From positions 256,001 through 320,000 of the forward strand of contig JAWXAQ010000016.1 in NCBI GenBank assembly GCA_034439575.1: 64,000 bases of DNA, in the 5' to 3' direction. The stretch is from Leptospira sp. GTDB lineage: Bacteria > Spirochaetota > Leptospiria > Leptospirales > Leptospiraceae. The first letter of the stretch is position 1, and every line of letters starts with the position of its first letter. Positions 6,643 to 25,287 of the stretch are shown here, piece after piece. A program made the position numbers and the translations under genes. The notes below the pieces were generated by a model that saw only the letters and a program-made list of their open reading frames with translations, did no database searches and was not told the origin of the DNA.

Positions 6643-8455
6643 AATAAGTGTAGAAACGGAAAATATTTTTCCAATCATCAAAAAATGGCTCTATTCAGAA
6701 AAAGACATCTTCATTAGAGAACTAGTTTCTAATGCTTGTGATGCGATCAGTAAATTAAAAAAAGTTTCTCTTTCAGAAGAATTCGAAGGTGGAACTGATT
6801 ACAAAATTGAGCTCTCATTTGATAAAGACAACCGAATACTCGTTATAGAAGATAACGGGATCGGTATGACATCAGATGAAGTAAAAAAATACATTAATCA
6901 AATTGCATTTTCTGGAGCCACTGACTTCGCAAAACATTACCAAAACAATGAAAATAAAACAGAGATTATAGGTCACTTTGGTCTTGGTTTTTAATCTTGT
7001 TTTATGGTATCAAAAAAAGTTACTATAGAGACGAAGTCATATAAAAAAGGTGAACGCGGTGTACTATGGGAAAGCGAATCGGGTACTGACTTTTCCATTT
7101 CATCCATAGAAAAAGAATTAAGAGGAACAAAAATTTCACTCCACCTTGATTCGGAATCAGGAGAATATCTTGATAAATGGAAATTAAAAGATCTAATCAA
7201 AAAGTATTGTGACTTTCTTCCCGTTGGAATCTATGTAGATGGGGAAAAAGCAAATAGGGAAAAACCTTTATGGTCAGAAGAACCTTCAAAGGTCAAACAA
7301 GAAGATTATAGAGATTTTTATAATTATCTTTTTCCATTCTCTGGTGAATCACTTTTTCACATTCATCTAAATGTAGATTTTCCATTTCGTTTGCAAGGTA
7401 TATTATACTTTCCTAAACTAACTCACGAATTGGATGCCGCAAAGAATGGTATAAAATTATTTTGTAACCATGTATTTGTAAGCGACAATGCCAATGAGCT
7501 CATTCCTCAATTTCTAACAATACTCAAAGGTACAATTGATATCCCAGATCTTCCACTGAATGTCTCAAGATCTTATCTACAAAATGACCCGCTCGTTAAA
7601 AAGATATCTGGTCACATAATTAAAAAAGTAGCCGATCGACTTGTTGATGATTTCAAAAAAAACAGGGAAGAGTTTCAGAAAAATTGGACGGATATTTCAA
7701 TATTCGTAAAATATGGTGTACTAACAGACGAAAAATTTTTTGAAGCAGTTAAAGATGTATTAATCTTTAAAAACTCGGAAGCTGGTTTCTATACTCTGAA
7801 TGAGTATTGGGAAAAGAATAAAGAAAAAAATCAAAACAAGATATATTACGCCAATGAAACAGAAATGAGTTCTGTTTATATGGAACTACTTAAATCACAA
7901 GGATTGGAAGCCTTGTTAGTTGACGCGAAAATCGATTCTCATTTAATCCAACATCTTGAAATGAAAAATCCAGATATGAAATTTCAGAGAGTAGATGCAG
8001 AAGTTGCAGATCAAATTGTCGACAAAGAAGCGAGCCCAGGTGTCGTCGATGCGAATAATCAGACGGAAACTGATAGGATTCTTGCATTTTTTAAAACGAC
8101 AGTGCATAGAGAAGGAATAGAAATCAAAGCCGAAGCATTGAAATCTTCTGTCGTTCCCGCGGTAATCTTACTTCCGGAATTTATGAGAAGAATGAGTGAA
8201 ATGAATTCAATGATGAATAAGGACGATTCTATGAATCTTTTAAAGAATCATACCCTACTTATCAATTCAAGTTCGCCACTTGTAAAGTCCGCCTTACGGG
8301 AGTTTGAGGGAGTAAGCCCCGACAAAGGAAAAAAAATCGCTCAATTGATTTACGACCTAGCCTTAATTTCTGCAAAAGCGATGAATGAGCATGAAATCGC
8401 AGAGTACACAAAACGTACAACAGCATTTCTAGAGGAAATTCTAGCTAAAAATTAA
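6620..8455 (+). pseudogene. htpG: Hsp90 chaperone HtpG interrupted by an in-frame TAA at 6992-6994 (nonsense mutation or sequence error)
   Basis: Motifs [25 protein letters not shown] and [13 protein letters not shown]; both ORF pieces are in the same frame; [10 protein letters not shown] lies downstream. Confidence 0.9.
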
Positions 8456-8495
8456 AAAAGGACTTTCCATTTTTCTTTGGCAATGTTGACTCCTA

Positions 8496-10844
8496 TTGTA
8501 CATTGCCAAAGAGAACAACGTGATCAATATATGTATTACCAGTCGTCTTTCATGTTTACCTATTGTTATTGCACACAAAAAAGGTTTTTTTGAAGAATTT
8601 GACACAGATGTAACTCTTCATTCCATCACACACCATAAAGCCATCTTAGCTCTTCTTGAAGCAGGGAGAATTGAAGCTGGAGAAATCCCCTCCATAGCCT
8701 ACCTCCAAGAAAGTTTTTTGAAAAAATCAAAAAACAAACGTATCTATAAAGGATTGATGTTGTATCGATCCCCGCTTTCATATTATTCTAGATTTAGGTT
8801 TCAACCAGAGGATCTATCAAAGAAAAAAGGATATTTTATCCCTGTTCCTCATTTCAACTCTGTAGAAAGATTACTTGCAGAAAAATTTTTGGAAGATTAC
8901 GCTCCTACTAATCCGATTAAGGTGCGTTATATGGATACGCCAAGTTTTTTAGAAGAAAAAGAATTTCTAAAACCTTCATGCCTTGGACTTGCCTCAGATC
9001 CTTTACTAAGCCCATTCTTAAAAAATTATCATGATTTTCGAGATGATAGCTTAATGCCATTATTAAATTCTGATAATTTTATTCCCGCCACCTTACTTGG
9101 GTTTAGTGGTGATTGTATTTTAAATATGGGCCGGGAAGTTTCAGGAGTATTGCTTGCAGTCAAAAAAGCTATAGATTTTATAAATGAAAGTAGCCTCAAT
9201 TCAAATTCCAAAGGTTGGGATGATTTAAATTTAAGCCAATATTTCCCTTTCCTTAGAACTTCAGATTTGAAAAATTTAATTTTTTCAAATCCTCTCGTCC
9301 AAAAGGGAGTCTACTCATATGATATTAATCCAGATACATTAACTCCCCTTTTAAAAGATTCTTACTTTAGACTCATACGTAGAGTAATGACTCCAGAAGC
9401 GATTCGTCCGCTTTTGGATTTTACAGAAATATTAGAATCTTTAACTCCCAAAAAACTCTTCGATGTTCGCAAGCTAACTAGCTTTCAACGAGGAGGGGCC
9501 GCAGACCAACATGCACCTTCCTTAATCAATTATCGAAAATTGAATGCGGTGAGACATCTCATAGTCGATATAAATTCTGTAGCCTTAGATATGTTGCAAG
9601 GCAATTATCAATCCAGACTCAATACAGATGACACACTATTGTTAGATAACAGAGTCAAGGTTCTCATCAATGCAATGTTAGATTCTTTCAATTCTACCTT
9701 TGCCTTACAAAAAGATGAAATCGCCGAATTAGAAAATTTAATCTCCATATTAGAAATCAAACTAGATAGGTCTGCGGTAGATTTACAATATTCAGAAGAG
9801 AAGTATCGATACCTATTTGAATTCTCCAGAGAAGCCATTGCTCTCGTAGATGCAGATACGGGAAATATTTTAGAAGGGAACCACCAATTCCGGAATCTCA
9901 CAGGATACACACGAGGCGACCTTACAAAACTTACAATAGAAGATATAATCATTAGCGAACAAATTGCACCTCAATTGAATTTTGGGGTGGATCGTTCGCA
10001 TGATACAATGTTATCTCTCCCCGATATTGATATTTTATTAAAGGATGGTTCGACTCTTGGAGTAGATTTAAGTTTTGCATCTATATTACTTTCACCCAAA
10101 AAAAGATACCAAGTCCAATTTCGTCCCAATCTCGAGAGAAAAGAACAAGAGCGATTACAACATGAATTTATTTCAAACGTAAGCCATGAACTCCGTAGTC
10201 CCATGACTAACATCCGTGGTTATTTAGAATTTTTTAAATCAGATAGTACTTTGCCATATACCACCGAACATAAAAATATGCTCGAAGTCATTGATAAAAA
10301 TACCAAACGATTAAGTTTTTTGATCGAAAATTTACTGAAGCTTACCACCTCACGAGAGAAAGACGAAAAGGATGATGTTATAGAAATTTTTGATCCAGTA
10401 CCCATCATAGAAGATGTGATACATATGAATTCCCATCTCTCTAAAGGAAAAACTATAGAATGGGATATTTCTTTAAAGAAGGGTCTACTGATTCGTGGTA
10501 TTCGTTTCGAATTTTCACAAATTGTTACGAATCTTTATGTCAATGCTCTAAAATACACCTCGAAAGGAAAAATTTCTGTCATTTTGACTGAAAAGGGTAA
10601 CCAAGTAGAATTTGTAGTACAAGACACTGGCATAGGCATAGATCCAAATTTCAAAAATCAAATCTTTGATCGATTTTTTAGAATTCCATCATTAGACAAT
10701 CGCAAAATAGGTGGAACAGGCCTTGGTCTTTCCATAGTGAAATCGTTAGTCGATAAATTGAACGGAGAAATATTCGTTGAAAGTAAACCAGGGGAGGGGA
10801 GTACATTCAAAGTGATACTCCCAAAGGTAACTACTTCCGTTTAA
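8496..10844 (+). CDS. Sensor histidine kinase with an N-terminal ABC substrate-binding-like (NMT1/NrtA-like) domain and a PAS domain
   Basis: H-box SHELRSPMTNI, N box NALKYT, G boxes DTGIGI and GGTGLGLSI, and a PAS-like segment. The N-terminal LPIVIAHKKGFFEEF resembles NMT1/SsuA. The exact start is uncertain. Confidence 0.85.
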   Translation: MYIAKENNVINICITSRLSCLPIVIAHKKGFFEEFDTDVTLHSITHHKAILALLEAGRIEAGEIPSIAYLQESFLKKSKNKRIYKGLMLYRSPLSYYSRFRFQPEDLSKKKGYFIPVPHFNSVERLLAEKFLEDYAPTNPIKVRYMDTPSFLEEKEFLKPSCLGLASDPLLSPFLKNYHDFRDDSLMPLLNSDNFIPATLLGFSGDCILNMGREVSGVLLAVKKAIDFINESSLNSNSKGWDDLNLSQYFPFLRTSDLKNLIFSNPLVQKGVYSYDINPDTLTPLLKDSYFRLIRRVMTPEAIRPLLDFTEILESLTPKKLFDVRKLTSFQRGGAADQHAPSLINYRKLNAVRHLIVDINSVALDMLQGNYQSRLNTDDTLLLDNRVKVLINAMLDSFNSTFALQKDEIAELENLISILEIKLDRSAVDLQYSEEKYRYLFEFSREAIALVDADTGNILEGNHQFRNLTGYTRGDLTKLTIEDIIISEQIAPQLNFGVDRSHDTMLSLPDIDILLKDGSTLGVDLSFASILLSPKKRYQVQFRPNLERKEQERLQHEFISNVSHELRSPMTNIRGYLEFFKSDSTLPYTTEHKNMLEVIDKNTKRLSFLIENLLKLTTSREKDEKDDVIEIFDPVPIIEDVIHMNSHLSKGKTIEWDISLKKGLLIRGIRFEFSQIVTNLYVNALKYTSKGKISVILTEKGNQVEFVVQDTGIGIDPNFKNQIFDRFFRIPSLDNRKIGGTGLGLSIVKSLVDKLNGEIFVESKPGEGSTFKVILPKVTTSV

Positions 10845-11643
10845 CTGTTTTTCTTGCCTTTTTCTTGGCAGCTTTCTTTTTACTCTTCGCCTTACTCTGA
10901 CTTTGTGAGGTTTTTTCCAATTTGTTTTGAATCAAATGAAGATCCGGCATTTTTTTGGGATCCAAATGCATAGTTGAAATCAAATGAGATAATTCCAACA
11001 TTTCACGTGTCCCGAGTAACCGTAATAACTCTAGAGCCGCACTGACACCTAACTTATGAAATATGGCCAAAGTATTTTCGACTCCAAAATAATTTAATAG
11101 AATAGGAAGCTCTTCGATACCACGCGTTTTTATCCACTTTTTGCAATCACTCACAGAAAGCACACTTACTAAAGATAATATGGAAGTAACATCGGATTCG
11201 GCAACCAACCATAGAAAATCTTTCATAGGAATTTCTTTAAGCAATGAAATCGCTTTGTCCATTCCTAATGTTTTTAATATTTCAACACTAGTTTCACGTC
11301 CGAGTGTCCTTGCCAATAAGCTTACATCAGCTGGAGGAATACTTCGTGCAACAAGCGCTAGATCATTCATAGGAAGTGAATGTATAAAATATACCAAATC
11401 CTCATCCGTATTTTCTCGAATCATGTCTACTAAGACACGTTCTGGAATTTGATTTACTAATTCTACAACTGTATCTTCGCTCAATTTTTGCGTCAGAACA
11501 ATCAATCTTTCTTTTGGCACTTTGCCTGTAAGCGATAGAAGTTTTTCATATCCTAGATTCTTTAGAATTTGAAACGACTTCTTTGGACCAAGTTTTTCCA
11601 AATATTGATAAACGCTTTGAATTGTGACGAGAACTTCTTTCAT
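10831..11643 (-). CDS. Helical-repeat hypothetical protein (MgtE N-domain-like) with a Lys-rich tail
   Basis: 270-aa ORF with roughly 12-residue amphipathic helical periodicity and a basic tail KSKKKAAKKKARK. Confidence 0.6.
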   Translation of the reverse strand: MKEVLVTIQSVYQYLEKLGPKKSFQILKNLGYEKLLSLTGKVPKERLIVLTQKLSEDTVVELVNQIPERVLVDMIRENTDEDLVYFIHSLPMNDLALVARSIPPADVSLLARTLGRETSVEILKTLGMDKAISLLKEIPMKDFLWLVAESDVTSILSLVSVLSVSDCKKWIKTRGIEELPILLNYFGVENTLAIFHKLGVSAALELLRLLGTREMLELSHLISTMHLDPKKMPDLHLIQNKLEKTSQSQSKAKSKKKAAKKKARKTVKRK

Positions 11644-11732
11644 AAAGGAAACTGTGACTCTAGTTTAAAGAAAGGGATGTAACTTCCAGAGAAATTCCTT
11701 GCGTCTGTGGGAATTTTTTTAAAAATTGAGGA

Positions 11733-12929
11733 GTGAAAAGACATTGGTTTCTGATCTCTATATGCATTTTTATTTTTTGTTATAGCTTCCTAATTTATTG
11801 GAAGTTGAGTCCTTACTCAGGGGCTTTTTCAGCATTGATCGGAATTTGGGAAGGTTTTGCTGAAATAAATCCAGATATCGTAGATAGCGGATTTGTTATC
11901 TTTCGAGACGGCGGATACGATGGCCAATTTTTCTATTATCTCGCCAAATCCATGTTTACTGATGTGAGCTGGGATCTTATCGTAGATTCATATGCCTTTC
12001 GTCTTCATAGAATAGGCCTCACTTTATTTCTCGGTGTCCCTTCCTATTTTTTCGGCTTCCAATTTTATCCACTAATAGGCGCTATTCTTCCGATACTTGT
12101 TTTTTTATATTCAGCTAAATGTTTATACAATTTATTTTCCGATGATAAAAAATATTTGACCCTCTTTTATATATTCTCTCCATTCTCTTTGAACTCCCAC
12201 CTTTTACTAGTAGCAGATGGTTTTTTTACCTCTCTCTGTTTAATTTCAATTTATCATATTTTCAAAAAATCAAATATATATTTGATCACAGCACTACTTA
12301 TTTTGACAGTTTTTACAAGAGAAATTGGTATTTTCCTAATTATTCCCTTACTAATGGAATCTATTTACCGCCGTGATTTAAAATCGAGCTCCTTATACGC
12401 ATTACCCCTTCTATTATTTTTTGTATTTTTATTTCTAACTCGTTTTTTCGAACCAAACCATCTAGGTACAAATCCATTAGGATTCACGGATATGATCGAT
12501 TATCCATTATTTGGTTTTTATAAAAGTTTTTTTGATTCAGGGCACTTTCATTTAACAGGAAAAGAAAGTACCAAACTTTTACTCGCATTTATGTGGATAC
12601 TTTCTTCGCTTTTTTGTATTTCATTGATTCAAAATATCAAAGCAAACTTTCAAAATTATTTATGGAATTATAACAATATCTCTTTATTATTGTTTCCGGT
12701 TTGTGCAAGTTTAGGTGTTATATTTTTTGCCGAAGAAGGTTACTGGCGTTCCTTTGATAATTTATCGCGCATGTTCACTTTGATTTTGCCATTGTTGTTA
12801 TTAATTTCATCTCAGAAAAGATCAGTTTTCATTGAGATTTTTCAATATTCAAGTTTGCTATTATTCTTTTTTCTCATTATACGTATTTTAGTCATAACAA
12901 AAGTTAAGGATTTCTATTTTTCATCATGA
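11733..12929 (+). CDS. Polytopic membrane protein, probably GT-C-like (surface glycopolymer synthesis)
   Basis: Many TM helices, a GYDGQFFY loop motif, and a TRE motif after a TM helix. Confidence 0.6.
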   Translation: MKRHWFLISICIFIFCYSFLIYWKLSPYSGAFSALIGIWEGFAEINPDIVDSGFVIFRDGGYDGQFFYYLAKSMFTDVSWDLIVDSYAFRLHRIGLTLFLGVPSYFFGFQFYPLIGAILPILVFLYSAKCLYNLFSDDKKYLTLFYIFSPFSLNSHLLLVADGFFTSLCLISIYHIFKKSNIYLITALLILTVFTREIGIFLIIPLLMESIYRRDLKSSSLYALPLLLFFVFLFLTRFFEPNHLGTNPLGFTDMIDYPLFGFYKSFFDSGHFHLTGKESTKLLLAFMWILSSLFCISLIQNIKANFQNYLWNYNNISLLLFPVCASLGVIFFAEEGYWRSFDNLSRMFTLILPLLLLISSQKRSVFIEIFQYSSLLLFFFLIIRILVITKVKDFYFSS

Positions 12930-13762: not shown

Positions 13763-16258
13763 GAGACAAAGTATAAGCCCTTTATCTCTCTTTAGGGGTT
13801 CTAATGCTTTCGCAACTAACATACCAGGCTTCAATTTATTCGGATCCGCTTTGATTGCATGACCCGAAGCTAATCCAGAAACAAGTAAGTCTCCGGGTAT
13901 AATGCCACCTTGAGTCGCATCCGCATGAATCTTTGTAAAGCCAAGAAATGCGACAAGTGCATATTCAAGCCCCTTTATTTCTTTACCGAATATTAAATTG
14001 GCACTTCCCACACAAACCCCTATGACATTGGTAGAGTAGGGGTGTTTGGATCTTGAAAGCACATTTGATTCTTCTGTTCCGACAAGTAAATCACCTGGAG
14101 TGACCACATCTCTTTGGTCTAATCGGAAAAATCTTCCGATACATTCTTCTTGCCCATCTTTGGACACACGAATGTTGCCATCAAATAATGAGTCGCCTAA
14201 CGCATGTACTGCCCTGCCAGAACCAAGCCATTCATTTTCTGGAATGCCTGCACCATTAGCAAAAATTGCATACCCTGATTGAGAAATAAATTGTCCTCCT
14301 GATGTATTGGCACCAACACCTAACACACCAGCACTATCTTTGAAATCCTTCCCTTTGGAAAGACCGATGACCCCTATTTTTTCTGAAAAACCGACAAGCC
14401 CACTTCCATTTCCTATCCCAATTATGCCTGAACCTTCACTCGTATTTTTACCATATATCACAGAGTCATTCGCGACTGGAGGGACTAGACCCTTTGATGG
14501 AGAAGAGGATTCACCAGAAATTCGTAAAAATCCAATATGGGAATCATAACTATGCTGTTTTTCGGCATATTCGTGTGTATGTGGCTTCGGATCCCTTTTG
14601 TCACTGAGTCTCGGATCATCAGCTAACACGACTTTGCCCGAAGCAGACTCTCCAAGCCTTGACAATGTGACAACGCCCGCCTTATCAAAATCAGCAGGCT
14701 GGATTCGTTTATCATCACCCTGTACAACGACCCCCGCTTTATTCTCCCCAGAATGAGCTAATTGAACAATACCATACTGTTCCGTGGTTCCATGCTTTAA
14801 TCTCTTATCATTGGCTTGTACTACTGTATCTGGCTCTTCGCCACCGTTTAACGCTAATTTTACGATACCTTTTGCAGTGGCAGTCGCATCTCTTAACCTT
14901 GAATCATCTCCAGTCACTACGCGGTCATGCGCTACTTCAGCAGAATCTGCGAGTTGCACAAGGCCATACGTTTTTTTTGTCGCAATACGTAAACGGGAAT
15001 CATTTCCTTGCACGACCACACCAGGTCTTGTTTCACCATCTTCAGCAAGTTCTACGATCCCCGAGTGCTCTGTACTTGCTGTGCGTAATCTCTCATCATC
15101 AGATTGGACAACAAGACCAGGTCTTGCCTCACCCGACCTTCCCAAACGCACCAATCCATGGGAAAGTTCAGTGGCGATTTTTAGGCGTTTATCATTTCCT
15201 TGAACAACAACTCCAGGTTTTTCTTCACCATCACTCGCAAGTTCTACGATACCGCGATATTCGGTGCTGGCATCGCGAAGTCTTCTGTCATTCGATTGGA
15301 CAACCACTCCTTCTTTTACTTCACCATCTACAGCAAGACGAATAATTCCTGAACGTAAGACAGAAGCGTAGGGGAGGGGTTCTCTCATAGGGCCACCTGA
15401 ATCTTTTTTATCAGGGCTAGAATAAAGTTCAATTTCTATAACTTCCGTTATATACTCTTTTTTGTTTTGTTGTTTTTCTTGTATAAAAACGATTTTCAAA
15501 AAACGCAAATTAACCGGAGAAACTCGCCATTTATACCATGTTCCAGGTTCAGAAAGAAAATTATTCTCTTCGTGTAACTGGTGCCAGGTGAGGTCGTCTT
15601 CACTATAATATGCTATAAACCGCTCTGGGAAATTTGTAATCGGATCATTTTTTGTCAACATACGAATTTCTTCGACTCGGTTGACACTGCCTAAATCAAA
15701 GATTAAATATTCGTCTTCAGGTTCTTCTTTTTTTTGTGAAGACCATCCATAGTCCGGCCTAGTATCGATTAAATTTTCTTTTACCCATAAGCGATCCAAT
15801 TCGGAACTCGCTTTTATACTAGTAACGCCCGTTACAAGAAGCTTCAAATTTCCGAAATTAATTCTATTTTTCCCACTGCTAGTCTTACGTGCAATTTTTG
15901 AAACGAACTTCACATAACGAGCGCTAGTTAGCGAAAAAAGCCACTTCGCTTGCGTTTTGAATGATTTGCGAAAAGCAGATTCTTGGAGTATGGGCTCCCA
16001 GTACTTTCCATCGTGCGATAATTCAAACCTAAATGAGTCAGGGAAATAGTCCAAACCGTCTTTTCCAGGATGCAATTCAATCCCATTGAAAAATACAGCT
16101 TCATCAAATTCAAAAATAATGGAGGATAGTCCCGCTTGGTCTCTTTCTTCAAAAAAGGAAACGAACTCTTGGTTTTTCAATTCGTATTGTCCCGTCGTTT
16201 TTACGGAACGAATGGGTAGCGAATTGGGGTGGCTGACACGGATCAGATTATCTTTCAT
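13748..16258 (-). CDS. Protein with discoidin (F5/8 type C)-like domains and phage tail-fibre-like repeats
   Basis: Two N-terminal beta-sandwich units (FPxxF...SxDxxxW...RYVKF/RFLKI), eight 32-aa repeats, an HTH His motif, a Gly-rich segment, and a C-terminal PGDLLV...KALE domain. Confidence 0.8.
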   Translation of the reverse strand: MKDNLIRVSHPNSLPIRSVKTTGQYELKNQEFVSFFEERDQAGLSSIIFEFDEAVFFNGIELHPGKDGLDYFPDSFRFELSHDGKYWEPILQESAFRKSFKTQAKWLFSLTSARYVKFVSKIARKTSSGKNRINFGNLKLLVTGVTSIKASSELDRLWVKENLIDTRPDYGWSSQKKEEPEDEYLIFDLGSVNRVEEIRMLTKNDPITNFPERFIAYYSEDDLTWHQLHEENNFLSEPGTWYKWRVSPVNLRFLKIVFIQEKQQNKKEYITEVIEIELYSSPDKKDSGGPMREPLPYASVLRSGIIRLAVDGEVKEGVVVQSNDRRLRDASTEYRGIVELASDGEEKPGVVVQGNDKRLKIATELSHGLVRLGRSGEARPGLVVQSDDERLRTASTEHSGIVELAEDGETRPGVVVQGNDSRLRIATKKTYGLVQLADSAEVAHDRVVTGDDSRLRDATATAKGIVKLALNGGEEPDTVVQANDKRLKHGTTEQYGIVQLAHSGENKAGVVVQGDDKRIQPADFDKAGVVTLSRLGESASGKVVLADDPRLSDKRDPKPHTHEYAEKQHSYDSHIGFLRISGESSSPSKGLVPPVANDSVIYGKNTSEGSGIIGIGNGSGLVGFSEKIGVIGLSKGKDFKDSAGVLGVGANTSGGQFISQSGYAIFANGAGIPENEWLGSGRAVHALGDSLFDGNIRVSKDGQEECIGRFFRLDQRDVVTPGDLLVGTEESNVLSRSKHPYSTNVIGVCVGSANLIFGKEIKGLEYALVAFLGFTKIHADATQGGIIPGDLLVSGLASGHAIKADPNKLKPGMLVAKALEPLKRDKGLILCLLTLS
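14600..15367 (-). repeat. Eight tandem 96-nt (32-aa) coding repeats, consensus AxxxxxGIVxLAxxGExxxGVVVQGxDxRLxx
   Basis: Read directly from the translation, from ASVLRSGIIRLA to DDPRLSD. Confidence 0.9.
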
Positions 16259-16303
16259 GCTATATTAAACTTCCTTCCAAAAATTTCAATTTTTCTCTCT
16301 AGT

Positions 16304-17215
16304 CTATCGAATTTCACTCAAACGTGATTCTTCTTCTTTTTCTTGAAAAATAACGACCAGCTTCGGGGAAACTTTTTCAGTGAAATATTTATGTATAATT
16401 TGTTTTGCAAAACCGGAAACGGGGGAAATGATCAATAAAACCTTTCCATCCAGATGGATCTCTATTTTTTCCAAATCCTTCCAAGTTGTATGAGAAAGCT
16501 GCTGGCTTGCCCATCCCAAAAATCCTAACCAAGAAGCAGGGTGGGTGACCTGTACTTCATCTGTTTTAATCTGCTCAAATTTAGTCAATTTTCCATTCTT
16601 TTGCATTACCTTCTCTTTGCAGAGACCAAGTAAATAATTCATATCTTTTTCCAGTTGCAAAGATGACGCATGAGAATAGCAAGAAAATGCGATATCCGTC
16701 CCAAAAAGGGAGACTAGTTCTTCCAGGGAACTTGTCTTTTCTTCCTGCTTTGGATTCAAATTCCCTTTGGGGTCTAATTGGTTAGTATTAGATATAGTTA
16801 TATTAATATGGTTCGGGGATATTCCAGTAACCCCCTTATCTGGATTTTGATCCCCCCCTGCCTGGTCAAAACGTATCCCACCGTGGGGTATATTTGTATC
16901 CCCGAGGGGGGTAATTTTGGATCCCTCATAGTGGAATGAAAAGTGGTATCTGGTCGCAGTTTTTCCGCTCCCAGGGACTTGGTACAAAAGACCGGCTTTG
17001 GTCAGTTCTTTTTTTGCCTGAACGATTGATTTTTTAGTTTTGAAACCTGTTAATCCGAGTAGGGTTTCTGTGCCAGGCCAAACCGGCTTAAACTTAGAAT
17101 CACTAAATTTCAAAAGCACCGGGTACAGAGTTTTAGCGGCACTGGACAAATTTGCCCAGACACCAGAATCTATAATGTCCGTCATAAAGCGGATATAGGG
17201 ATGGTAGTCACTCAT
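16304..17215 (-). CDS. rep: Replication initiator Rep (N-terminal winged HTH) of the secondary replicon
   Basis: N-terminal wHTH of phage/plasmid-initiator type (LSSAAKTLYPVLL...VWPGTETLLGLTG...KELTKAGLL), directly downstream of parAB. The ATG at 17215 is preceded by GGAGG. Confidence 0.78.
   Translation of the reverse strand: MSDYHPYIRFMTDIIDSGVWANLSSAAKTLYPVLLKFSDSKFKPVWPGTETLLGLTGFKTKKSIVQAKKELTKAGLLYQVPGSGKTATRYHFSFHYEGSKITPLGDTNIPHGGIRFDQAGGDQNPDKGVTGISPNHINITISNTNQLDPKGNLNPKQEEKTSSLEELVSLFGTDIAFSCYSHASSLQLEKDMNYLLGLCKEKVMQKNGKLTKFEQIKTDEVQVTHPASWLGFLGWASQQLSHTTWKDLEKIEIHLDGKVLLIISPVSGFAKQIIHKYFTEKVSPKLVVIFQEKEEESRLSEIR
16781..16930. repeat. Iteron-like repeats at 21-25 bp spacing plus an adjacent AT-rich tract inside rep (candidate origin)
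   Basis: GTAACCCC at 16827, TGATCCCC at 16848, GTATCCCA at 16873, GTATCCCC at 16896 and GGATCCCT at 16919; AT-rich tract at 16781-16810. Confidence 0.5.
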
Positions 17216-17275
17216 CCGACCTCCTATAAAATTGCGCAAAAAACAAACTAATTCTAAGCAAATTTTACGAAGGTC

Positions 17276-17303
17276 TTGACATTATTTGACATAATGTTAA
17301 TTA
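17276..17303 (+). promoter_or_regulatory. Candidate sigma70 promoter for the counter-transcript
   Basis: TTGACA at 17276-17281 (second copy at 17286) and an imperfect -10 in TGTTAATTA; the region also forms an imperfect inverted repeat TTGACATTA...TAATGTTAA. Confidence 0.4.
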
Positions 17304-17307
17304 TGTC

Positions 17308-17367
17308 TCATCCAACAACATTCCTTCGGGAAAACCCGGTCCCCTGTTCGCGCAGGGGATTTTTTTT
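17308..17367 (+). ncRNA. Putative ~60-nt antisense counter-transcript to the rep leader
   Basis: TTCC-TTCG-GGAA hairpin (C-UUCG-G tetraloop) at 17321-17332, followed by an intrinsic terminator. It lies opposite to parB-rep. The 5' end is estimated. Confidence 0.55.
17339..17367 (+). terminator. Rho-independent terminator
   Basis: GTCCCCTG-TTCGCG-CAGGGGAT stem-loop followed by a run of 8 T. Confidence 0.8.
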
Positions 17368-17457
17368 ATCTTTCTCGCAAGATATAGGTTTTCCTACGTT
17401 CCGTATCTATTTTTATCGGGACGAAGTACTTAAATTTCGTTTACTATATTATGTCAC

Positions 17458-17485
17458 ATTATTGCCAAATCCCAGAGACTGTCAA
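17458..17485 (-). promoter_or_regulatory. Candidate sigma70 promoter for rep
   Basis: The minus strand reads TTGACA-16 nt-AATAAT, which would give a leader of about 235 nt before the rep ATG. Confidence 0.55.
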
Positions 17486-17554
17486 GTTTGTACCTAATTT
17501 TTTGCCTAGGCACCTAATATTTTTTGTCTAAGTACTTGACAAGCAAGTACTTGT

Positions 17555-18379
17555 TTAGGTATTGGCTGATTCGCCGAATTTTTTTGAAAGTTCCTTTTTC
17601 AGGTATTTCAGAATTTCTCCGAGCAAAATTTCATCTTCCGATTGGATGGAAATTGTGTTTCCTGTCCGCTTTACTTTATATTGAGCAGGTATCCTTCTCT
17701 CGGGAGATGTTTTGGTTTCTTTCCCTTTTTTATTAAAATCTTTGGCATCCCGAACTGTCTTCAAAACACCTTTAGAATACATCTCTAAAAAATTTTGCAA
17801 AGAGCCACTTTTTGCAGCCTGTGCAGCTTGGACGAGAAGGTTCTTATTTTGTATATTTACAGCTCTACATTTCGCCAAATCAGGTTTTGTCATGCCAGCA
17901 ATGGAGAGCACTTCGGACATATAACTTCGACTTTTTCCAAAAAGATCCCCCAGTTCTGCATCAGTATAACTGTGAGCATTTTTCAAAAAGAGTAGGGCAT
18001 CCACTTCTTCATAAGGTGATAAATTTTCTCTTTGGAGGTTTTCGATAACGGCAAGTTTATAAATTTCCTTTTCTGGACGGTCTAGAATTTTACATTCAAT
18101 TTCAGTCCAGCCAATTGATTTTGCCGCGTGGAATCTTCTTTCCCCGGCGATGATTCGGTAATGGTCCTCACCACGACCTTTCGAAACTACAATTGGTTGT
18201 AACAACCCATCCGTACGAAGGGAAGAGGCTAACTCATCGATTCCTTTCTTTCTTTCTTGCCTTGGTTGGTTTTCTGCTGGTTCGATTTTATCCAAACGGA
18301 TTGTTCGAATCGTTCCATCTAAATTTTCGGATTGGTAAATATCGGCAAGTGAGCCGAGTCTTTTACTTTTTAAGCTCAC
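17555..18379 (-). CDS. parB: ParB/Spo0J partition protein
   Basis: Motifs QPR, GLLQPIVV, IIAGERRFHAA and IENLQRENLSP, plus an HTH (LGDLFGKSRSYMS). Confidence 0.95.
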   Translation of the reverse strand: MSLKSKRLGSLADIYQSENLDGTIRTIRLDKIEPAENQPRQERKKGIDELASSLRTDGLLQPIVVSKGRGEDHYRIIAGERRFHAAKSIGWTEIECKILDRPEKEIYKLAVIENLQRENLSPYEEVDALLFLKNAHSYTDAELGDLFGKSRSYMSEVLSIAGMTKPDLAKCRAVNIQNKNLLVQAAQAAKSGSLQNFLEMYSKGVLKTVRDAKDFNKKGKETKTSPERRIPAQYKVKRTGNTISIQSEDEILLGEILKYLKKELSKKFGESANT

Positions 18380-19115
18380 GGAGAACCTCCTCTAAAAATC
18401 CTTCATATTCTTGAGATTGTCTCGAAGTGCGATTATAGTCATAAACTGATTTTTTTGCTAAATGACTTTCTCCAATGGCGACTCCATCCGAAATCGTATG
18501 GTCAAAAATCCTGAAATATTTGCCGAGAACTGGTAAAATTGTTTTGGTAAGTAGAGTTTGCGGTTTTAGCTGAGTGATTAACGCACCCAAAATTTCCAAA
18601 TCTGGATTGATCCTTTTTTTGATAGAGGATATGGTCTGTTGGAGTCCCATAATTCCATCCATCGAAAATTTCTCTGCTTGGAGAGGGATCAAAACATAAT
18701 TTGAGGCAACCAAACTATTGACTGTAAAAATTGAAAGAGAAGGTGGACAGTCAATGATCGCAAAATCGAAGTCTTTTAAATCCTGGAGCGAGTCCCGCAG
18801 AATATAAGGAGCTTCCACGGAATTAACAGAAACCGTTTCCATTTCCGCCAAGCGCATGCTAGATGGAGCTATCCACAAATATTCGTTATACGCCGGGATG
18901 ATGATATCTTTTATTTTCGCAGCGTTTTGAAATAAATGCGCAAGGTCTTTGTCGATGGTCTCTGGGTTTATAAAAATTCCCGTCGAGTTGGCTTGCGGGT
19001 CCATATCGATCAGAAGGGTTTTGTAATTTTTCCTAGCAAGTCCCATAGCAAGGTTGAGAGATGTAGTTGTTTTTCCTTCTCCGCCCTTTTGGTTTGCAAT
19101 TGCGATGGTGATCAT
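18363..19115 (-). CDS. parA: ParA/Soj partition ATPase
   Basis: Deviant Walker A NQKGGEGKTT, IDMDPQAN and IIDCPPSL; overlaps parB. Confidence 0.95.
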   Translation of the reverse strand: MITIAIANQKGGEGKTTTSLNLAMGLARKNYKTLLIDMDPQANSTGIFINPETIDKDLAHLFQNAAKIKDIIIPAYNEYLWIAPSSMRLAEMETVSVNSVEAPYILRDSLQDLKDFDFAIIDCPPSLSIFTVNSLVASNYVLIPLQAEKFSMDGIMGLQQTISSIKKRINPDLEILGALITQLKPQTLLTKTILPVLGKYFRIFDHTISDGVAIGESHLAKKSVYDYNRTSRQSQEYEGFLEEVLRELKK

Positions 19116-19222
19116 AGGCCTCTAATTCCTTCTCTTTTGGTATGGTTTTGATGGAAAATACTTCTAGCAATTGAAATTTCAAAATTGTATAAAAAAAGAA
19201 ATTTTGTCTGCATCTCCTTTAT

Positions 19223-19289
19223 TGTCGGACATCCGACATACCAAAAATTAGAAAAAAGTATCTGTTGGATTTGTGTCGGACATCCGACA
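19223..19289. promoter_or_regulatory. Two identical 16-bp palindromes TGTCGGA-CA-TCCGACA (candidate parS or parAB operator)
   Basis: Exact copies at 19223-19238 and 19274-19289, just upstream of parA. Confidence 0.7.
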
Positions 19290-19341
19290 TTCAAAACGGT
19301 ACGTACTTGACAAAGTGATTAAATTTAAACAGTTTCATAGC

Positions 19342-20667
19342 ATGCCATTCTCTGGCAAGTCAGCCATTTATTCTGCTGAAACAGGTAAGTCTTGGATAGA
19401 AAAAATCCTTCCCTTGGCCTGGGAAGAGTTATGTACAAGCATGGGAATCCTGGCGGGAGTCGTTGTCCTCAAGTCGTTTGAAGATGACTCTTTTATGGAG
19501 AGTGCTTCTTTCGGGTATGGTGAAGACGGATTTTATTATCCATTTTTGGCAAGAGGCGAATCCGAACTCGAAGAGGTAAAGTTGAGTTTAGGTCCAGTGA
19601 TGTTCTCTGGTGAAACGCACTCTTTGTTTTCGGAAGATGCTAATGCCTATGTGATGGGAATCCGATGTGAAAACCCATTAGAATTTTCAGGTTTCATACT
19701 TGCCGAGTTTCCAAAAAAAGATCAAAATTTTAGCCAACTCCTTTACCTTTTCGCTGAGAAAATAGCCAAAGAAATCGAATCTATTCATATTCAAAAAAAA
19801 TATATAAGCGAGCAGGCGATCACTCCGACGCCCCAAGAATCTCCATTTATAATCCATTTCATTTCAGGATTAAATCAAAAAATTGAGGCTTTAAAAAAAG
19901 AAGGGTATGTAAGTATTTTTGGTAAAAAAGGAACAGGAAAACGCACCCTTGCCAAGTGGATCCATAGCCAGACTCGACCTCATTCGCCTTGTTTATTTAT
20001 TAGTTCTATTCCCGATCATTTAGGAAAATTGGAAAAAGCAATCTCTCATTGGTCAGAAGAAATTGGCCGAGGAACCTTGGTGTTTTCAGGGCCCAAAAAA
20101 TGGAGTCTCGGGCAACAGAAAATCCTTTTGGATTGGGTTTCCACAAAGCTAGAATGCCAAATTTTATTCTTGGATGGTTTGGAGGAAGCAGAAGAATTGT
20201 TGCCAGCTTTCGGAAAGCACTTGCGCAAAAATAGCATCCAAGTTTCCGAATTATCCTTTTTTAATAAAACTGACATTCAAGAAATCGCGACTCGCATGTT
20301 TCAAGATTTGGCCCGTGAGCAAAATAGAAGTGGTCTTAGTTTAGATGCAAAAGCTTTAGATAGCATATGTGAACAAGATTTTCCAGGAAATTTTACTGAT
20401 TTGAAAAACCTTTTACTCTCTGGAATTTTGAAATGCAAAAGCAATATTGTCACCGAAACCGATCTTGATTTTAGTGATTCCCACCTTAATTTAGGCGTTC
20501 CCGATTCGGAAGATTTAGACTTGCGGAGAGGGATTCAGGCACTAGAAAGGCAGAAGATTCTAAATGCAAAACGGATATTCTCCGGCAACCAAATTCGAAT
20601 GGCAAAGGCTTTAGGAATCTCTCGCGGGGCTTTACAAAATAAAATGAAACAACTAGGCTTACTTTAA
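19342..20667 (+). CDS. Fis-HTH transcriptional regulator with a degenerate sigma54-activator-like AAA domain
   Basis: Walker-A-like GKKGTGKR, FPGNFTDLKN (compare WPGNxREL), and C-terminal GNQIRMAKALGISRGALQNKM. No GAFTGA motif. The start was moved to ATG 19342. Confidence 0.75.
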   Translation: MPFSGKSAIYSAETGKSWIEKILPLAWEELCTSMGILAGVVVLKSFEDDSFMESASFGYGEDGFYYPFLARGESELEEVKLSLGPVMFSGETHSLFSEDANAYVMGIRCENPLEFSGFILAEFPKKDQNFSQLLYLFAEKIAKEIESIHIQKKYISEQAITPTPQESPFIIHFISGLNQKIEALKKEGYVSIFGKKGTGKRTLAKWIHSQTRPHSPCLFISSIPDHLGKLEKAISHWSEEIGRGTLVFSGPKKWSLGQQKILLDWVSTKLECQILFLDGLEEAEELLPAFGKHLRKNSIQVSELSFFNKTDIQEIATRMFQDLAREQNRSGLSLDAKALDSICEQDFPGNFTDLKNLLLSGILKCKSNIVTETDLDFSDSHLNLGVPDSEDLDLRRGIQALERQKILNAKRIFSGNQIRMAKALGISRGALQNKMKQLGLL

Positions 20668-23784: not shown

Positions 23785-25287
23785 GTGCTTTTTAATAGTC
23801 CGATATATGTTATATTTGTAGGCGTTTTATTGCTTATGCATTGGTCATTAAAATGCCTTTATATGGGCGCAAATAGATCGCTGCCCAATAGCGTACAAGG
23901 AACTGCTGCTCTACCGGTCATTATATTGCTTATATTTAGTGGATTATTCTACTCGGCTTGGAATCCCACATACTTCGGCCTTCTAGTATGGGTTGCCGCT
24001 GTAGATTATAAAATAGCATTGCGTATTTATGCAGCCAAGACTGATTCCAAGAGAAAATTTTTACTAATTCTTTCTCTATCGAATAGCCTGGGGATCCTAT
24101 TTTTCTTTAAGTACTTTGGCTTTTTCCAAGAAAATCTCCTGGAAACCTTGCATATTTTGGGATTGAGTGCTCACTTTGAAATCATTCGTATTTTACTCCC
24201 TGTGGGAATTTCCTTTTATGTCTTCCAATCCGTTTCCTACATCGTAGATGTCTATCGGCGCAATATTTTGCCTGAGAAGAATTTGAGCCATTATTTACTA
24301 TTTCTTTCCTTTTTCCCGCAATTAGTGGCAGGCCCAATCGTAAATGCTAAGTCATTTTTGCCACAATTGAAAAATCTACTGCCCTTTTCCGAAATCCGAT
24401 GGAACTTTGCTCTTTTTCTCATACTACTCGGTGCTTTCAAAAAAGTAGTTATCGCAGACCATTTGGCTATCACTTCCGATTTTTCCTTTTCTCATGTCGG
24501 GGAGGTAAATAGGGAATTTTTGTGGATTGGCTTACTGTCCTACGCAGGTCAGATATATTGTGATTTTTCGGGGTATACTGATATTGCCCAAGGCACGGCA
24601 CTTATGTTCGGGTTTGAGCTACCTGAGAATTTTAGGATGCCTTATCTGGCTCGTGGGTTTTCTGACTTTTGGCGGAGGTGGCATATCTCGCTTTCTGATT
24701 GGTTGAAAAATTATTTGTACATACCTCTCGGTGGAAATCGTGCGGCAAAATTGGGCATATATAAGAATCTAATGGTGGTTATGCTACTTGGTGGGCTTTG
24801 GCATGGCGCAAATTGGAATTTTCTATTTTGGGGGGCTGGTCATGGATTTTTATTGGTCTGTGAGAGGTTGGTTCGAAATTTAAATATAAATACTAAATAT
24901 TTGGAAATCCGTCTGCTAATGCCAATTTATCATTTTATGTATACGGCTTTGACCTTTTTATGCGTATGTTTTCTTTGGGTATTCTTTCGTAGTCAGAATT
25001 TTAGTGATTCCCTGTGCTATCTACAGGGCCTTTTTGTGAAAAACGCTGATATTTCCATTCCTTATGCCCAATTGATGACAACATATTGGTGTTTTTTTGC
25101 GATGATTGTCGGTCATATCATAGGTCAAAAAATCTTTAAAAATAATGAATCTCTATCAATGAAGTTTGATGCTATGGAACAAACGGCTGTTAAAAAAATT
25201 GCACTTGGAGCCTTATATTCATTGGGTTTTATCGCTGTAGTGCTAATGTCTGGGAATGCTCTACCTTTTGTATATTTTGTATTTTAA
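23785..25287 (+). CDS. MBOAT family O-acyltransferase (AlgI/PatA-like)
   Basis: Motifs LPVGISFYVFQ, FFPQLVAGPI, DFSGYTDIA, FWRRWHISLS and GLWHGANWNF. Confidence 0.93.
   Translation: MLFNSPIYVIFVGVLLLMHWSLKCLYMGANRSLPNSVQGTAALPVIILLIFSGLFYSAWNPTYFGLLVWVAAVDYKIALRIYAAKTDSKRKFLLILSLSNSLGILFFFKYFGFFQENLLETLHILGLSAHFEIIRILLPVGISFYVFQSVSYIVDVYRRNILPEKNLSHYLLFLSFFPQLVAGPIVNAKSFLPQLKNLLPFSEIRWNFALFLILLGAFKKVVIADHLAITSDFSFSHVGEVNREFLWIGLLSYAGQIYCDFSGYTDIAQGTALMFGFELPENFRMPYLARGFSDFWRRWHISLSDWLKNYLYIPLGGNRAAKLGIYKNLMVVMLLGGLWHGANWNFLFWGAGHGFLLVCERLVRNLNINTKYLEIRLLMPIYHFMYTALTFLCVCFLWVFFRSQNFSDSLCYLQGLFVKNADISIPYAQLMTTYWCFFAMIVGHIIGQKIFKNNESLSMKFDAMEQTAVKKIALGALYSLGFIAVVLMSGNALPFVYFVF

Follow-up and report, generated by a model that had tools for sequence, protein, structure and literature searches.

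In the repABC plasmids and chromids of Alphaproteobacteria, an antisense RNA of ~50 nt, known as RepE, IncA, or inc-alpha, is encoded between the parB-like gene and the initiator gene; according to a review of secondary-chromosome replication, its stem-loop doubles as a terminator, and the RNA lowers initiator expression and determines incompatibility (PMC6090056). The same review, in its passages on Leptospira, names the genus merely as a chromid carrier. A second related system is found on the streptococcal plasmid pMV158, where the small antisense RNA RNAII is described as inhibiting initiator translation and as having a 5' tail critical for target binding (PMC4485353).

This work describes a unit of comparable layout in the parB-rep gap of a Leptospira replicon, at positions 17216-17554 of the window (the whole 64,000-nucleotide stretch of DNA analyzed here). 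The unit resembles the alphaproteobacterial RNA in position, size, orientation, and replicon type, the last being a secondary chromosome. It differs in that it has no sequence or structure match to the ctRNA families of Rfam at E values up to 10, in that it faces an HTH_36 initiator rather than RepC, and in that transcription of rep starts at a strong distal promoter of its own and does not rely only on read-through from the operon promoter. The host phylum, Spirochaetota, is also different, as are the invariant tail of the RNA and a second complementary site on chromosome I. Like RNAII, the Leptospira RNA is predicted to carry a single-stranded 5' tail followed by a terminator hairpin, whereas the initiator of pMV158, a small rolling-circle plasmid, is unrelated. 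In contrast to RNAII, the Leptospira site lies ~95-160 nt upstream of the start codon, away from the ribosome-binding site; any translational effect must therefore be indirect.

The original prediction held that antisense RNA controls the copy number of this replicon. We find that the antisense RNA gene is real and conserved, and control of rep by this small RNA (sRNA) is likely. In our overall reading, which we regard as fairly probable, the gap encodes a plus-strand antisense RNA of ~58-63 nt that lowers Rep and determines how many copies of chromosome II are kept; within that reading, in vivo pairing, the sign of the effect, and its connection to copy number are inferred. Such control had been thought undescribed, and our literature search turned up no report of a Leptospira replicon under antisense control; the main text of PMC13224635 and of PMC10715090 makes no mention of the locus. 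Transcription in the gap, however, had already been recorded as the candidate sRNA LIC2nc40, which is discussed below.

The chromosome II locus and its plus-strand unit

Three minus-strand genes define the locus: parA, for the partition ATPase (18363-19115; Pfam AAA_31, E value of 1.1e-52, and CbiA/ParA); parB (17555-18379; Pfam ParB_N, E value of 9.2e-22); and rep, for a putative chromosome II initiator of 303 aa (16304-17215; HTH_36, E value of 1.6e-08). The naming, with a partition operon and a putative rep gene downstream, follows the description given by Picardeau in 2008 (PMC2229662). The C terminus of Rep matches phage "replication initiation protein" families (PHROG, E values of 1.2e-12 and 4e-4). 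With only an HTH_36 domain and this phage-type similarity, the initiator candidate is not of the RepC type, and the locus falls outside repABC. Assignment of the replicon to chromosome II is borne out by matches in closed genomes, which lie on contig C2 at ~1.7-2 kb from an end, and by the gene order parA-parB-rep-discoidin gene, which is common to the window and L. interrogans chromosome II.

All motifs listed in the original prediction were located at the coordinates given there. The sRNA promoter, TTGACA-17-AATTAT, occupies 17276-17304 of the plus strand (-35 at 17276-17281, -10 at 17299-17304; score of 10/12). The small RNA as modeled is 63 nt long (plus strand, 17305-17367) and scores 83.3 bits with covariance model R1, which reaches at most 11.2 bits elsewhere in the window; with its start predicted near 17310, the RNA would measure ~58 nt. 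Its 5' seed, TCCAACAACATTCC (17311-17324), is unpaired in the fold and thus predicted to be single stranded. Downstream of the seed are a small hairpin, CGGG-AAAA-CCCG (17327-17338), supported by the minimum-energy fold and by cross-species pairing, and an intrinsic terminator (17339-17367; GC stem at 17338-17361, stem-loop at 17341-17358, T8 at 17360-17367), supported by a terminator scan and by covariation. The 66-nt unit folds at -21.1 kcal/mol (z score of -3.25), and none of 200 shuffles was equally stable. Both hairpins of the original prediction, the terminator and UUCC-UUCG-GGAA (17321-17332), are present, but the latter competes with the overlapping CGGG-AAAA-CCCG. It is CGGG-AAAA-CCCG that is chosen in the minimum-energy fold, and across species it fares slightly better (92.9% of cells paired and 9 double changes, against 85.3% and 1 for the UUCG hairpin).

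A scan of 3.5 kb returned 12 promoter-like sites (7.3 +/- 2.7 in shuffles) and 8 terminator-like sites (3.6 +/- 2.1 in shuffles). With such sites this common, single motif matches prove little, and the case rests on comparison; there, conservation in the alignments shows that the predicted promoter and terminator sites of the unit are not chance matches. As originally claimed, no plus-strand gene precedes the terminator: the sole plus-strand open reading frame (ORF) there (17276-17497, 73 aa, TTG start) was rejected as a gene, as it crosses hairpin loops of species-variable length. A minus-strand leader ORF of six codons (AUG UUG UUG GAU GAG ACA UAA) was also rejected, being lost in genus g14 through a change of AUG to AUA. 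An Rfam cmscan of 16000-19500 at E values up to 10 gave seven chance-level matches, with no family at threshold and no ctRNA family (repABC ctRNA_p42d or the plasmid ctRNA families) among them. Over the unit, a betaproteobacterial toxic sRNA scored best, with 16.6 bits versus a gathering score of 50.

The whole gap was matched in 41/41 genomes of the genus, and a 111-nt unit was matched in 112 of the 114 Leptospiraceae genomes, representing 13 of 14 genera. The 25-kb plasmid pTURPA.01 of Turneriella parva, which has the same gene order, also contains a model match (21.7 bits, E value of 3.3e-5), situated in its parB-rep gap on the strand opposite to rep. In a blastn search for homologous units in plasmids and phages, no phage matched, and the sole plasmid entries were two records of L. 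interrogans chromosome II that are filed as such. One L. mayottensis plasmid, whose Rep is distant, was rejected as a carrier; its match reached 12.6 bits only and lies inside its rep gene. The RNA regions of the window and of L. interrogans share 82% identity over 122 nt, including an invariant block. The sRNA tail is almost invariant, whereas Rep is 43.4% identical between the same two genomes (53-75% within the clade); judged by these alignments, conservation is stronger in the unit than in the protein encoded opposite it.

Model R1 matches 55 of the 56 related loci searched; an extra weak match (L011, 3157-3213) was judged spurious. Covariation was counted on an alignment fitted to the model, with rows that are related to one another, and on this basis 90.4% of cells are paired versus 81.3% in shuffles (0/500 reached the value) and at most 73.7% in slid controls. 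Double changes occur in 8/11 pairs overall and in 7/7 pairs of the terminator stem (56 rows). Aligning the orthologous gaps and checking for covariation, as had been proposed, thus revealed terminator pairing that is kept through sequence change: by genus, the stems read CCCCUGG, CCUCCAUUGG, CCCCGG, CUCCUGGG, UUUCCCCCG, and GGGCAUG, and the loop varies in length and sequence while the stem covaries. A T-run lies directly 3' of the hairpin on the plus strand in 53/53 distinct sequences; the plus strand is the better-folding strand in 34 of these 53, a weak signal. At the promoter, TTGAC[A/T/G/C] stands 17-18 nt from a hexamer abutting GTCTCAT in 50/50 distinct upstream sequences. This -10 hexamer is AATTAT in 17, TATTAT in 15, ACTTAT in 10, and of other forms in 8 sequences, and the usual A at position 2 is absent in 12 of the 50, including L. 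interrogans (AGTTAT). The constant -35 and spacing, the covarying stem, and the constant T-run agree with the original view of a short RNA gene with its own promoter and terminator, and they support the conclusion that both the build of the unit and its pattern of evolution are those of a small RNA gene.

The rep leader and its transcripts

The distal rep promoter, TTGACA-16-AATAAT (minus strand, 17458-17485; score of 11/12), abuts an invariant GTGACATAAT. Upstream, GTGACATAA is present with at most one mismatch in 78/78 loci scanned, and the -35 element TTGAC[A/G/T] is in register at 16-18 nt in 48 of 59 distinct upstream sequences, the remaining 11 being shifted by 1-3 nt. Both the sRNA promoter and the distal rep promoter keep their sequence and spacing, and their spacers vary. 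From the promoter position, the rep leader is predicted to be ~236 nt long (minus strand, 17216-17451; fold of -67.6 kcal/mol, z score of -4.6). The distal rep start and the sRNA 5' end are separated by 92-255 nt (median of 143) in the 78 loci. In all 78, the leader fully overlaps the sRNA, as originally claimed, and L. interrogans sense reads run through the overlap into rep.

Stranded RNA-seq was mapped on locus L111, which is identical to L. interrogans chromosome II, with orientation fixed by the parB and rep reads; the libraries consist of 101-nt paired reads, which a 60-nt RNA escapes. Sense 5' ends cluster at L111 positions 544 and 547 (47, 43, and 32 molecules), 12-15 nt downstream of the predicted distal start. 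Sense depth peaks at 754, drops to 145 across positions 666-791, and is 128-155 in rep; the fall across the overlap with the sRNA-complementary region (723-781) is ~5-fold. The resulting sense fragment exceeds rep mRNA 4- to 5-fold and antisense reads 10- to 15-fold in abundance, and its 3' boundary (~767-771) lies within the stretch complementary to the sRNA tail. Antisense depth is 27-54 over positions 540-749 and 0-2.4 beyond 771, and the antisense/sense ratio is ~6-18% inside the leader versus ~1% in rep. The antisense 5' boundary, at 771 and 767, is 10-14 nt from the predicted sRNA start at 781, and the reads represent long forms. Both ends of these antisense molecules (544/531 and 771/767) are the same as those of the sense fragment; the molecules could represent read-through RNA that was trimmed while in a duplex, or an artifact that an abundant short RNA creates in the library. 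As a whole, the RNA-seq is consistent with activity of the distal promoter, with a leader that in most cases stops within the overlap, and with antisense RNA being made from the predicted promoter. By promoter conservation and RNA-seq, rep is served by its own promoter and not solely by transcription of the parA-parB operon. Logan contigs of run X1 hold the stretch within a single 28-kb contig and are uninformative on transcripts.

A candidate proximal rep promoter, GAGACA-17-AATAAT (minus strand, 17281-17309; score of 9/12), overlaps the sRNA promoter on the other strand. Run X24, with a sense depth of 0-1 at L111 750-812 and 8-15 from 813 onward (63 reads only), lends it weak support.

The abundant leader fragment probably corresponds to LIC2nc40, a candidate L. 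interrogans sRNA of 223 nt (chromosome II, 348,946-349,168) placed in the 5' untranslated region (UTR) of LIC20276, with RT-PCR recorded as "-" (Caimano 2014, PMC3953431); it was also detected by Zhukova in 2017 (PMC5243855). The entries for LIC2nc40 in these two papers give no strand logic, antisense partner, or replication link. Transferred to the rotated 350,181-bp record, LIC2nc40 spans L111 544-766; the transfer assumes that the records differ by rotation only, and a check using the cobalamin riboswitch LIC2nc10 agrees within 20 nt.

Nearer to the gene, a predicted hairpin (minus strand, 17218-17275) would close the rep ribosome-binding site, with the anti-Shine-Dalgarno (anti-SD) segment GACCUUCG (17275-17268) pairing to the SD AGGAGG (17225-17220). 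The 3' leader is not alignable, so RNAalifold found no consensus for it across the family, and duplex tests were instead done per sequence. The anti-SD:SD duplex beats at least 190 of 200 shuffles in 42/60 distinct sequences; the same anti-SD is also complementary to the part of the leader that lies under the sRNA tail, and this complementarity is significant in 23/60. In equilibrium folding, the ribosome-binding site has an accessibility of 0.30 in the free leader, compared with 0.23 when the sRNA site is blocked and 0.26 when a control block is used; blocking the sRNA site lowered it in 27/65 sequences and the control block in 21/65, and this equilibrium test did not separate the three-part switch from its control. 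Pairing of the sRNA 5' end with the rep start codon region through the repeat CTCATCCGAC / CTCATCCAAC was rejected for lack of conservation: in most of the clade the rep start codon is GTG, and its context differs.

In the mechanism that we propose, a sigma-70-type promoter would drive an RNA in which ~20 nt of unstructured 5' tail are followed by a small hairpin and then by an intrinsic terminator. Its transcription would converge with that of the ~236-nt rep leader, which begins at the conserved distal promoter. Lying wholly inside that leader, the sRNA is perfectly complementary to it. Pairing would probably begin at the 5' tail of the sRNA and reduce Rep synthesis by one or both of two routes: the leader may be cut or trimmed at the duplex, leaving a stable 5' fragment, or the sRNA may occupy leader segment CCCGAAGGAAU, which could otherwise hold the anti-SD segment, so that the freed anti-SD would close the rep ribosome-binding site. 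Less Rep would mean fewer initiations, and the sRNA would thereby set the copy number of chromosome II.

The seed and a second site on chromosome I

A cis-antisense pair requires no sequence conservation, and the invariant tail therefore needs a further cause. The exact 14-mer complement of the seed is present in 98 of the 114 family genomes and in two or more copies in 70, while a reversed control 14-mer occurs once in all 114 together. In 24 of 26 cases, the second site lies 35-39 nt upstream of one orthologous chromosome-I gene, and the longest exact complement measures 14-19 nt in 21/21 genome pairs. A conserved seed, predicted to be single stranded, is thus combined with a conserved complement close to the start of a candidate target mRNA encoded elsewhere in the genome, the pattern expected of a trans-acting sRNA. 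The conserved chromosome-I gene, which lies between a fapA-like gene and remA-gmk, codes for a coiled-coil protein anchored in the membrane; its product has no match in Pfam or NCBIfam, and Atlas leads point to clusters with a minority of DUF6115 or DUF2802 members (scores of 0.90-0.94).

It is possible, if somewhat doubtful, that the sRNA is a dual regulator, acting in cis on rep and pairing in trans, through its invariant 14-nt seed, with the 5' UTR of the chromosome-I gene; such a target would freeze the tail across more than 100 species. Genus g14, where the seed differs, bears on this proposal. Its variant 14-mer has one copy per genome in 6 of the 7 g14 genomes holding the variant; genome G111 has it twice, in the C form in its own leader and in the T form on another contig. 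The chromosome-I orthologues of G109 and G113 have no variant-seed motif. With no covarying second site where the seed differs, g14 provides no compensatory evidence for trans pairing. Genomes G052 (g7) and G056 (g8) also are without the chromosome-I site, and the tail has drifted in two of the three genera checked that lack it.

Alternative readings and biological meaning

The conserved block might instead act as DNA, which we consider unlikely: it would be the origin or operator of chromosome II, with two overlapping back-to-back promoters and the plus-strand transcript as a by-product. The GACATAAT repeats and GTAC palindromes would then be sites for Rep, ParB, or another protein, and the hairpin would be a bidirectional transcription stop or an insulator between the partition operon and rep. 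The repeats themselves fit this reading. All three exact copies of GACATAAT in the window fall in the gap; the palindrome GACATAAT-N4-ATTATGTC spans the sRNA -10 element (17288-17307) as a candidate operator for a putative binding protein, and further copies of the element lie at 17278-17285 (GACATTAT) and at 17448-17455, the distal rep start. GTAC-centered repeats flank the distal rep promoter in all genera read. Similarly, AAGTACTT occurs 6 times in the window against 0.96 expected, and 3 of these copies are in the gap: two form the inverted repeat AAGTACTT-N7-AAGTACTT just past the parB stop (17530-17552), a candidate parS and/or parAB terminator hairpin, and the third lies within the rep leader (17424-17431). 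The overlap of the candidate proximal rep promoter with the sRNA promoter and the invariance of 40+ nt, typical for protein and promoter sites, point in the same direction. Given the GC-skew minimum at 16-18 kb of the window, origin functions at the DNA level may add to the conservation of the gap. However, a covarying stem with a variable loop points to RNA pairing, and the T-run is always on the plus strand, although no plus-strand gene there needs a terminator. Sense reads of the minus strand cross the hairpin at a depth of 145-200, which means that rep is not insulated from its distal promoter, and an origin site does not account for the conserved second seed copy in the chromosome-I mRNA leader.

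Less probable still is that the sense leader is itself the functional RNA; the ~225-nt fragment (probably LIC2nc40) would then arise by termination or processing independent of any antisense partner and would be either a regulatory RNA of high stability or an attenuated leader. A protein could, for example, bind it through the GGA-containing motif GAAGGAAUGUUGUUGGAUG, and the motif in the chromosome-I leader might be a shared protein site. The abundance of the fragment and the report of LIC2nc40 from the gap, by coordinate transfer, speak for this reading, as do two GGA triplets 11 nt apart in both the rep and the chromosome-I leaders; we take this two-GGA motif to resemble CsrA-type sites. 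On the other hand, the minus strand has no T-run after its hairpins, a protein site would not require all 14 nt to be fixed, spacer included, and the conserved plus-strand -35, spacing, and T-run are left unexplained. The 3' end of the fragment, inside the complement of the sRNA tail, is as expected if a duplex defines the boundary.

Interference between convergent promoters alone, with polymerase collision or occlusion of the proximal rep promoter and an RNA product without a role, is very improbable, for although the facing starts are 92-255 nt apart, the sRNA promoter and the candidate proximal rep promoter occupy the same 34 bp, and sense depth declines across the overlap, it requires neither a covarying conserved terminator nor an invariant single-stranded tail and leaves the second complementary site on chromosome I unexplained.

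Antisense control of rep is our preferred reading. A conserved antisense RNA facing the rep leader is a concrete handle on the copy control of chromosome II, testable in the saprophyte L. biflexa, and it offers an explanation for LIC2nc40, an L. interrogans transcript that had been published without one. Because Leptospira replicons are used to build shuttle vectors, such an RNA could matter for vector copy number and incompatibility. The 25-kb Turneriella plasmid also carries the module, which supports the view that chromosome II arose from a plasmid and kept its control circuit intact. The finding would add spirochetes, with an unrelated initiator, to the Alphaproteobacteria as bacteria in which an antisense RNA controls the initiator of a chromid, and, if the chromosome-I site is a true target, there would be a direct RNA link from the initiator control of the secondary replicon to a chromosome-I gene.

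Locus and conservation of the small-RNA gene

The plus-strand unit in the parB-rep gap (window 17305-17367; predicted RNA of ~58 to 63 nt) is a genuine and ancient gene for a small RNA, which by position is a counter-transcript to the leader of the chromosome II initiator gene. On the minus strand, the locus comprises parA (18363-19115), parB (17555-18379), and rep (16304-17215); the last encodes a 303-amino-acid HTH_36 protein with a C-terminus similar to phage replication-initiation proteins and is followed by a discoidin (F5/8 type C) gene. The chromosome II replicon and gene names of the original prediction hold, because the order parA, parB, HTH gene, discoidin gene, and metF is the same on L. 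interrogans chromosome II, closed relatives carry the locus on contig C2 at 1.7 to 2 kb from one end, and the cumulative GC skew of the 64-kb window reaches its minimum at 16 to 18 kb, in the bin (16001-18000) with rep and the gap. Picardeau 2008 (PMC2229662) likewise describes the chromosome II origin as a partition operon with a putative rep gene downstream. The skew minimum is consistent with an origin at or beside the gap. A sigma-54-activator-like gene (19273-20667) is divergent from parA.

The motifs originally listed for the gap are all present, yet alone they are weak evidence, because 3.5 kb contained 12 promoter-like sites versus 7.3 ± 2.7 in shuffles. No Rfam family matched the unit. 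The proposed UUCG hairpin is a possible fold, but an overlapping CGGG/CCCG hairpin is slightly better supported.

Conservation is extensive. The whole gap was matched in 41/41 genomes of the GTDB genus and the 111-nt unit in 112 of 114 family genomes (13 of 14 genera), the exceptions being G041 (75% complete) and G107. In stretches taken from other genera, a 33-nt core was found with ≤6 changes in 37/40; among the remaining three, a covariance model of the sRNA found two, at 31.6 to 31.7 bits, and missed one. Rep identity is 53 to 75% within the clade and, between the window and L. interrogans, 43.4%, despite which identity across 122 nt of the RNA region is 82%. Among 53 distinct sequences, GTCTCATCCAACAACATTCCTTCGG is mostly invariant. 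By blastn, no match was found in any true Leptospira plasmid or phage record.

An RNA-level signature was seen in orthologous gaps, where hairpin conservation and covariation had been proposed as a check. After realignment of 56 rows (including one spurious 15-bit match) to the model, standard pairs made up 90.4% of cells versus 81.3% in column shuffles (0/500 as high), and both sides changed in 8/11 pairs overall and 7/7 terminator pairs; these are upper estimates, because the sequences are related to one another and were aligned to fit the structure. Every pairing measure dropped in a control with partner columns slid. Differing terminator stems are also directly readable in the sequences of other genera and Turneriella, and the terminator loop varies in length and sequence between relatives. 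A plus-strand T-run follows the hairpin in 53/53 distinct sequences, and in 34 of them the plus-strand fold is slightly better than that of the complementary strand.

Promoters and transcripts

The sRNA -35 element (TTGAC followed by A, T, G, or C) lies 17 to 18 nt from a hexamer abutting GTCTCAT in all 50 distinct upstream sequences. AATTAT or TATTAT is the -10 hexamer in 32 of these, and 12 have a base other than A at position 2. The distal rep promoter (17458-17485) is conserved too: GTGACATAA, which it abuts, occurs with ≤1 mismatch in 78/78 loci. Of 59 distinct sequences, 48 have a TTGAC hexamer at 16 to 18 nt from a hexamer of xxxAAT type, and the other 11 have it shifted by 1 to 3 nt. 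Promoter spacers keep their length and vary in sequence. At every locus, the sRNA is positioned 92 to 255 nt inside the rep leader (predicted ~236 nt in the window), and the 34 bp of the sRNA promoter also contain, on the other strand, a candidate proximal promoter for rep. The octamer GACATAAT makes up a palindrome over the -10 element of the sRNA and is present again where the distal rep transcript would start; its three exact copies in the window are all in the gap, and from sequence it is a candidate operator common to both promoters. Separately, AAGTACTT occurs six times in the window versus 0.96 expected, with three exact palindromes outside the gap (24109-24116, 28033-28040, and 52841-52848); these dispersed copies could be centromere-like sites of chromosome II.

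Expression was read at the L. interrogans-type locus L111, identical to L. interrogans chromosome II over 1501 nt, from runs X21 and X22 (stranded paired-end), X24 (single-end), and X1 (contigs); parB and rep reads established that first mates are antiparallel to the transcript. Sense 5' ends cluster at L111 544 and 547 (47, 43, and 32 molecules); the predicted start for TTGACA-17-TTTAAT is 12 to 15 nt upstream of them. Sense depth in X21 falls from 754 at 624-644 to 145 at 771-791 and is 128 to 155 in rep, so that about four-fifths of leader molecules stop short of rep; complementarity to the sRNA spans 723-781. In X24 (63 reads), depth is 18 to 19 at 624-728, 0 at 750-770, and 8 to 15 from 813 onward, which hints at the candidate proximal rep promoter.

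The abundant fragment probably corresponds to a published transcript. According to Caimano 2014 (PMC3953431), LIC2nc40 is a candidate sRNA of 223 nt (chromosome II 348,946-349,168) in the 5' UTR of LIC20276, and Zhukova 2017 (PMC5243855) has it detected a second time. Assuming that NZ_CP020413.2 (350,181 bp) is a rotation of the Caimano 2014 record, LIC2nc40 maps to L111 544-766 and coincides exactly with the abundant piece of the leader. With this offset, LIC2nc10 falls no more than 20 nt from an Rfam cobalamin riboswitch upstream of a CbiX gene. A literature search, made without supplementary tables, turned up no description of a Leptospira replicon under antisense control.

Antisense depth is 27 to 54 at 540-749, 19 at 750-770, 2.4 at 771-791, and 0 to 2 further on, or ~6 to 18% of sense within the leader versus ~1% in rep. 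Molecules end at 771 and 767 (8, 7, and 5 molecules), 10 to 14 nt into the sRNA from its predicted start (781). They are long and show no drop at the terminator, and both of their ends are those of the abundant sense fragment, all of which counts against the antisense reading. They may come from read-through transcription followed by trimming of the duplex, or may be an artefact to which an abundant short RNA gives rise. A 60-nt RNA is below what such libraries can show.

Two further features were seen in sense reads. In three runs, many parB-sense molecules end at L111 387-389 (window equivalent near 17555-17565, the parB end). The annotated stop codon ends ~10 nt further on (398) and a strong inverted repeat (404-433) begins after 15 nt; the read ends may mark a processing site or an annotation issue. 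Within L111 622-712, reads go back at the joints 691 to 622 and 712 to 623 (15 to 18 reads per run in X21 and X22, 5 to 6 nt common at the joint) and 711 to 622 (5 and 2 reads, no common nt). These joints lie within the ~110-nt excess of the L. interrogans-type leader (370 nt versus 255 to 261 in other leaders of genus g12) and may stem from a tandem duplication that this strain carries, a circular form, or template switching.

Proposed control of rep and a possible second seed site

In the predicted fold, an upstream anti-SD segment (17275-17268) pairs with the rep RBS (17225-17220). This duplex is better than at least 190/200 shuffles in 42 of 60 distinct sequences, and its two sides switch together between clades (GACC/GGUC in the window, CUCC/GGAG in most of the genus). 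Under the 5' tail of the sRNA lies a leader segment (CCCGAAGGAAU) that is also complementary to this anti-SD, at a significant level in 23/60; in the pathogen clade this segment resembles the true rep start region. The anti-SD-to-RBS interval also holds a TTTGCTTAAAATTAAT-like block (17245-17262, minus strand; TTTGCTTAGAATTAG), kept in most genera and preceding the opposite-strand sRNA -35 by ~20 to 35 nt.

The complementarities suggest a three-part switch of tail site, anti-SD, and RBS: pairing of the tail site with the anti-SD would leave the RBS open, and sRNA bound to the tail site would let the anti-SD close it. Equilibrium folding of the leader did not confirm this arrangement, so the switch would have to be kinetic. 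Alternatively, the leader would be cleaved or trimmed at the sRNA duplex, which fits a truncated leader ending there equally well. By either route, negative control of rep by the sRNA is the best reading and somewhat probable, given the geometry and the truncated leader.

A cis-antisense pair stays complementary under any mutation, so something else must account for the frozen tail. The exact 14-nt complement of the seed within the tail (17311-17324) has at least two copies in 70/114 genomes (g1, 37/41; g12, 18/22; g13, 12/24; g5, 2/2; g4, 1/5), versus one occurrence in total of a reversed control. In 24 of 26 inspected cases, the second site precedes the start codon of a single chromosome-I orthologue by 35 to 39 nt, with flanks that differ between genera, and one g4 genome has 13/14 nt of the motif at the same place. 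The longest exact complement is 14 to 19 nt in 21/21 genome pairs. The product (320 to 377 aa, beginning MELF) matched no family; its gene has a FapA-domain gene and a small ORF upstream and remA-gmk downstream. In the window's own genome (G000:C30:219045-220042, on a chromosome I contig; L124), the cluster starts with a FapA-domain gene and a 95-aa ORF. Next, after a short spacer with the motif, come the gene for the coiled-coil protein, here 320 aa and membrane-anchored, one for a RemA-like protein, and a last ORF that we read from sequence as a putative guanylate kinase. A rival to seed pairing is a protein site common to both leaders. In g14 and g7 the seed is changed and the chromosome-I orthologue has no such motif, and in g8 the orthologue lacks the motif with the seed unchanged; compensatory proof of pairing was thus not obtained.

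The unit on a Turneriella plasmid

The 25-kb plasmid pTURPA.01 of Turneriella parva (NC_018021.1) carries, at 6891-12553, a divergent Fis-family regulator gene, parA, parB, an HTH rep gene, a hypothetical gene, and a discoidin gene. Its parB-rep gap matches the model on the strand opposite to rep (21.7 bits; E = 3.3e-5), with a U8 tail and a quite different terminator stem. That this plasmid carries the Leptospira chromosome II module, antisense unit included, fits a plasmid origin of chromosome II.
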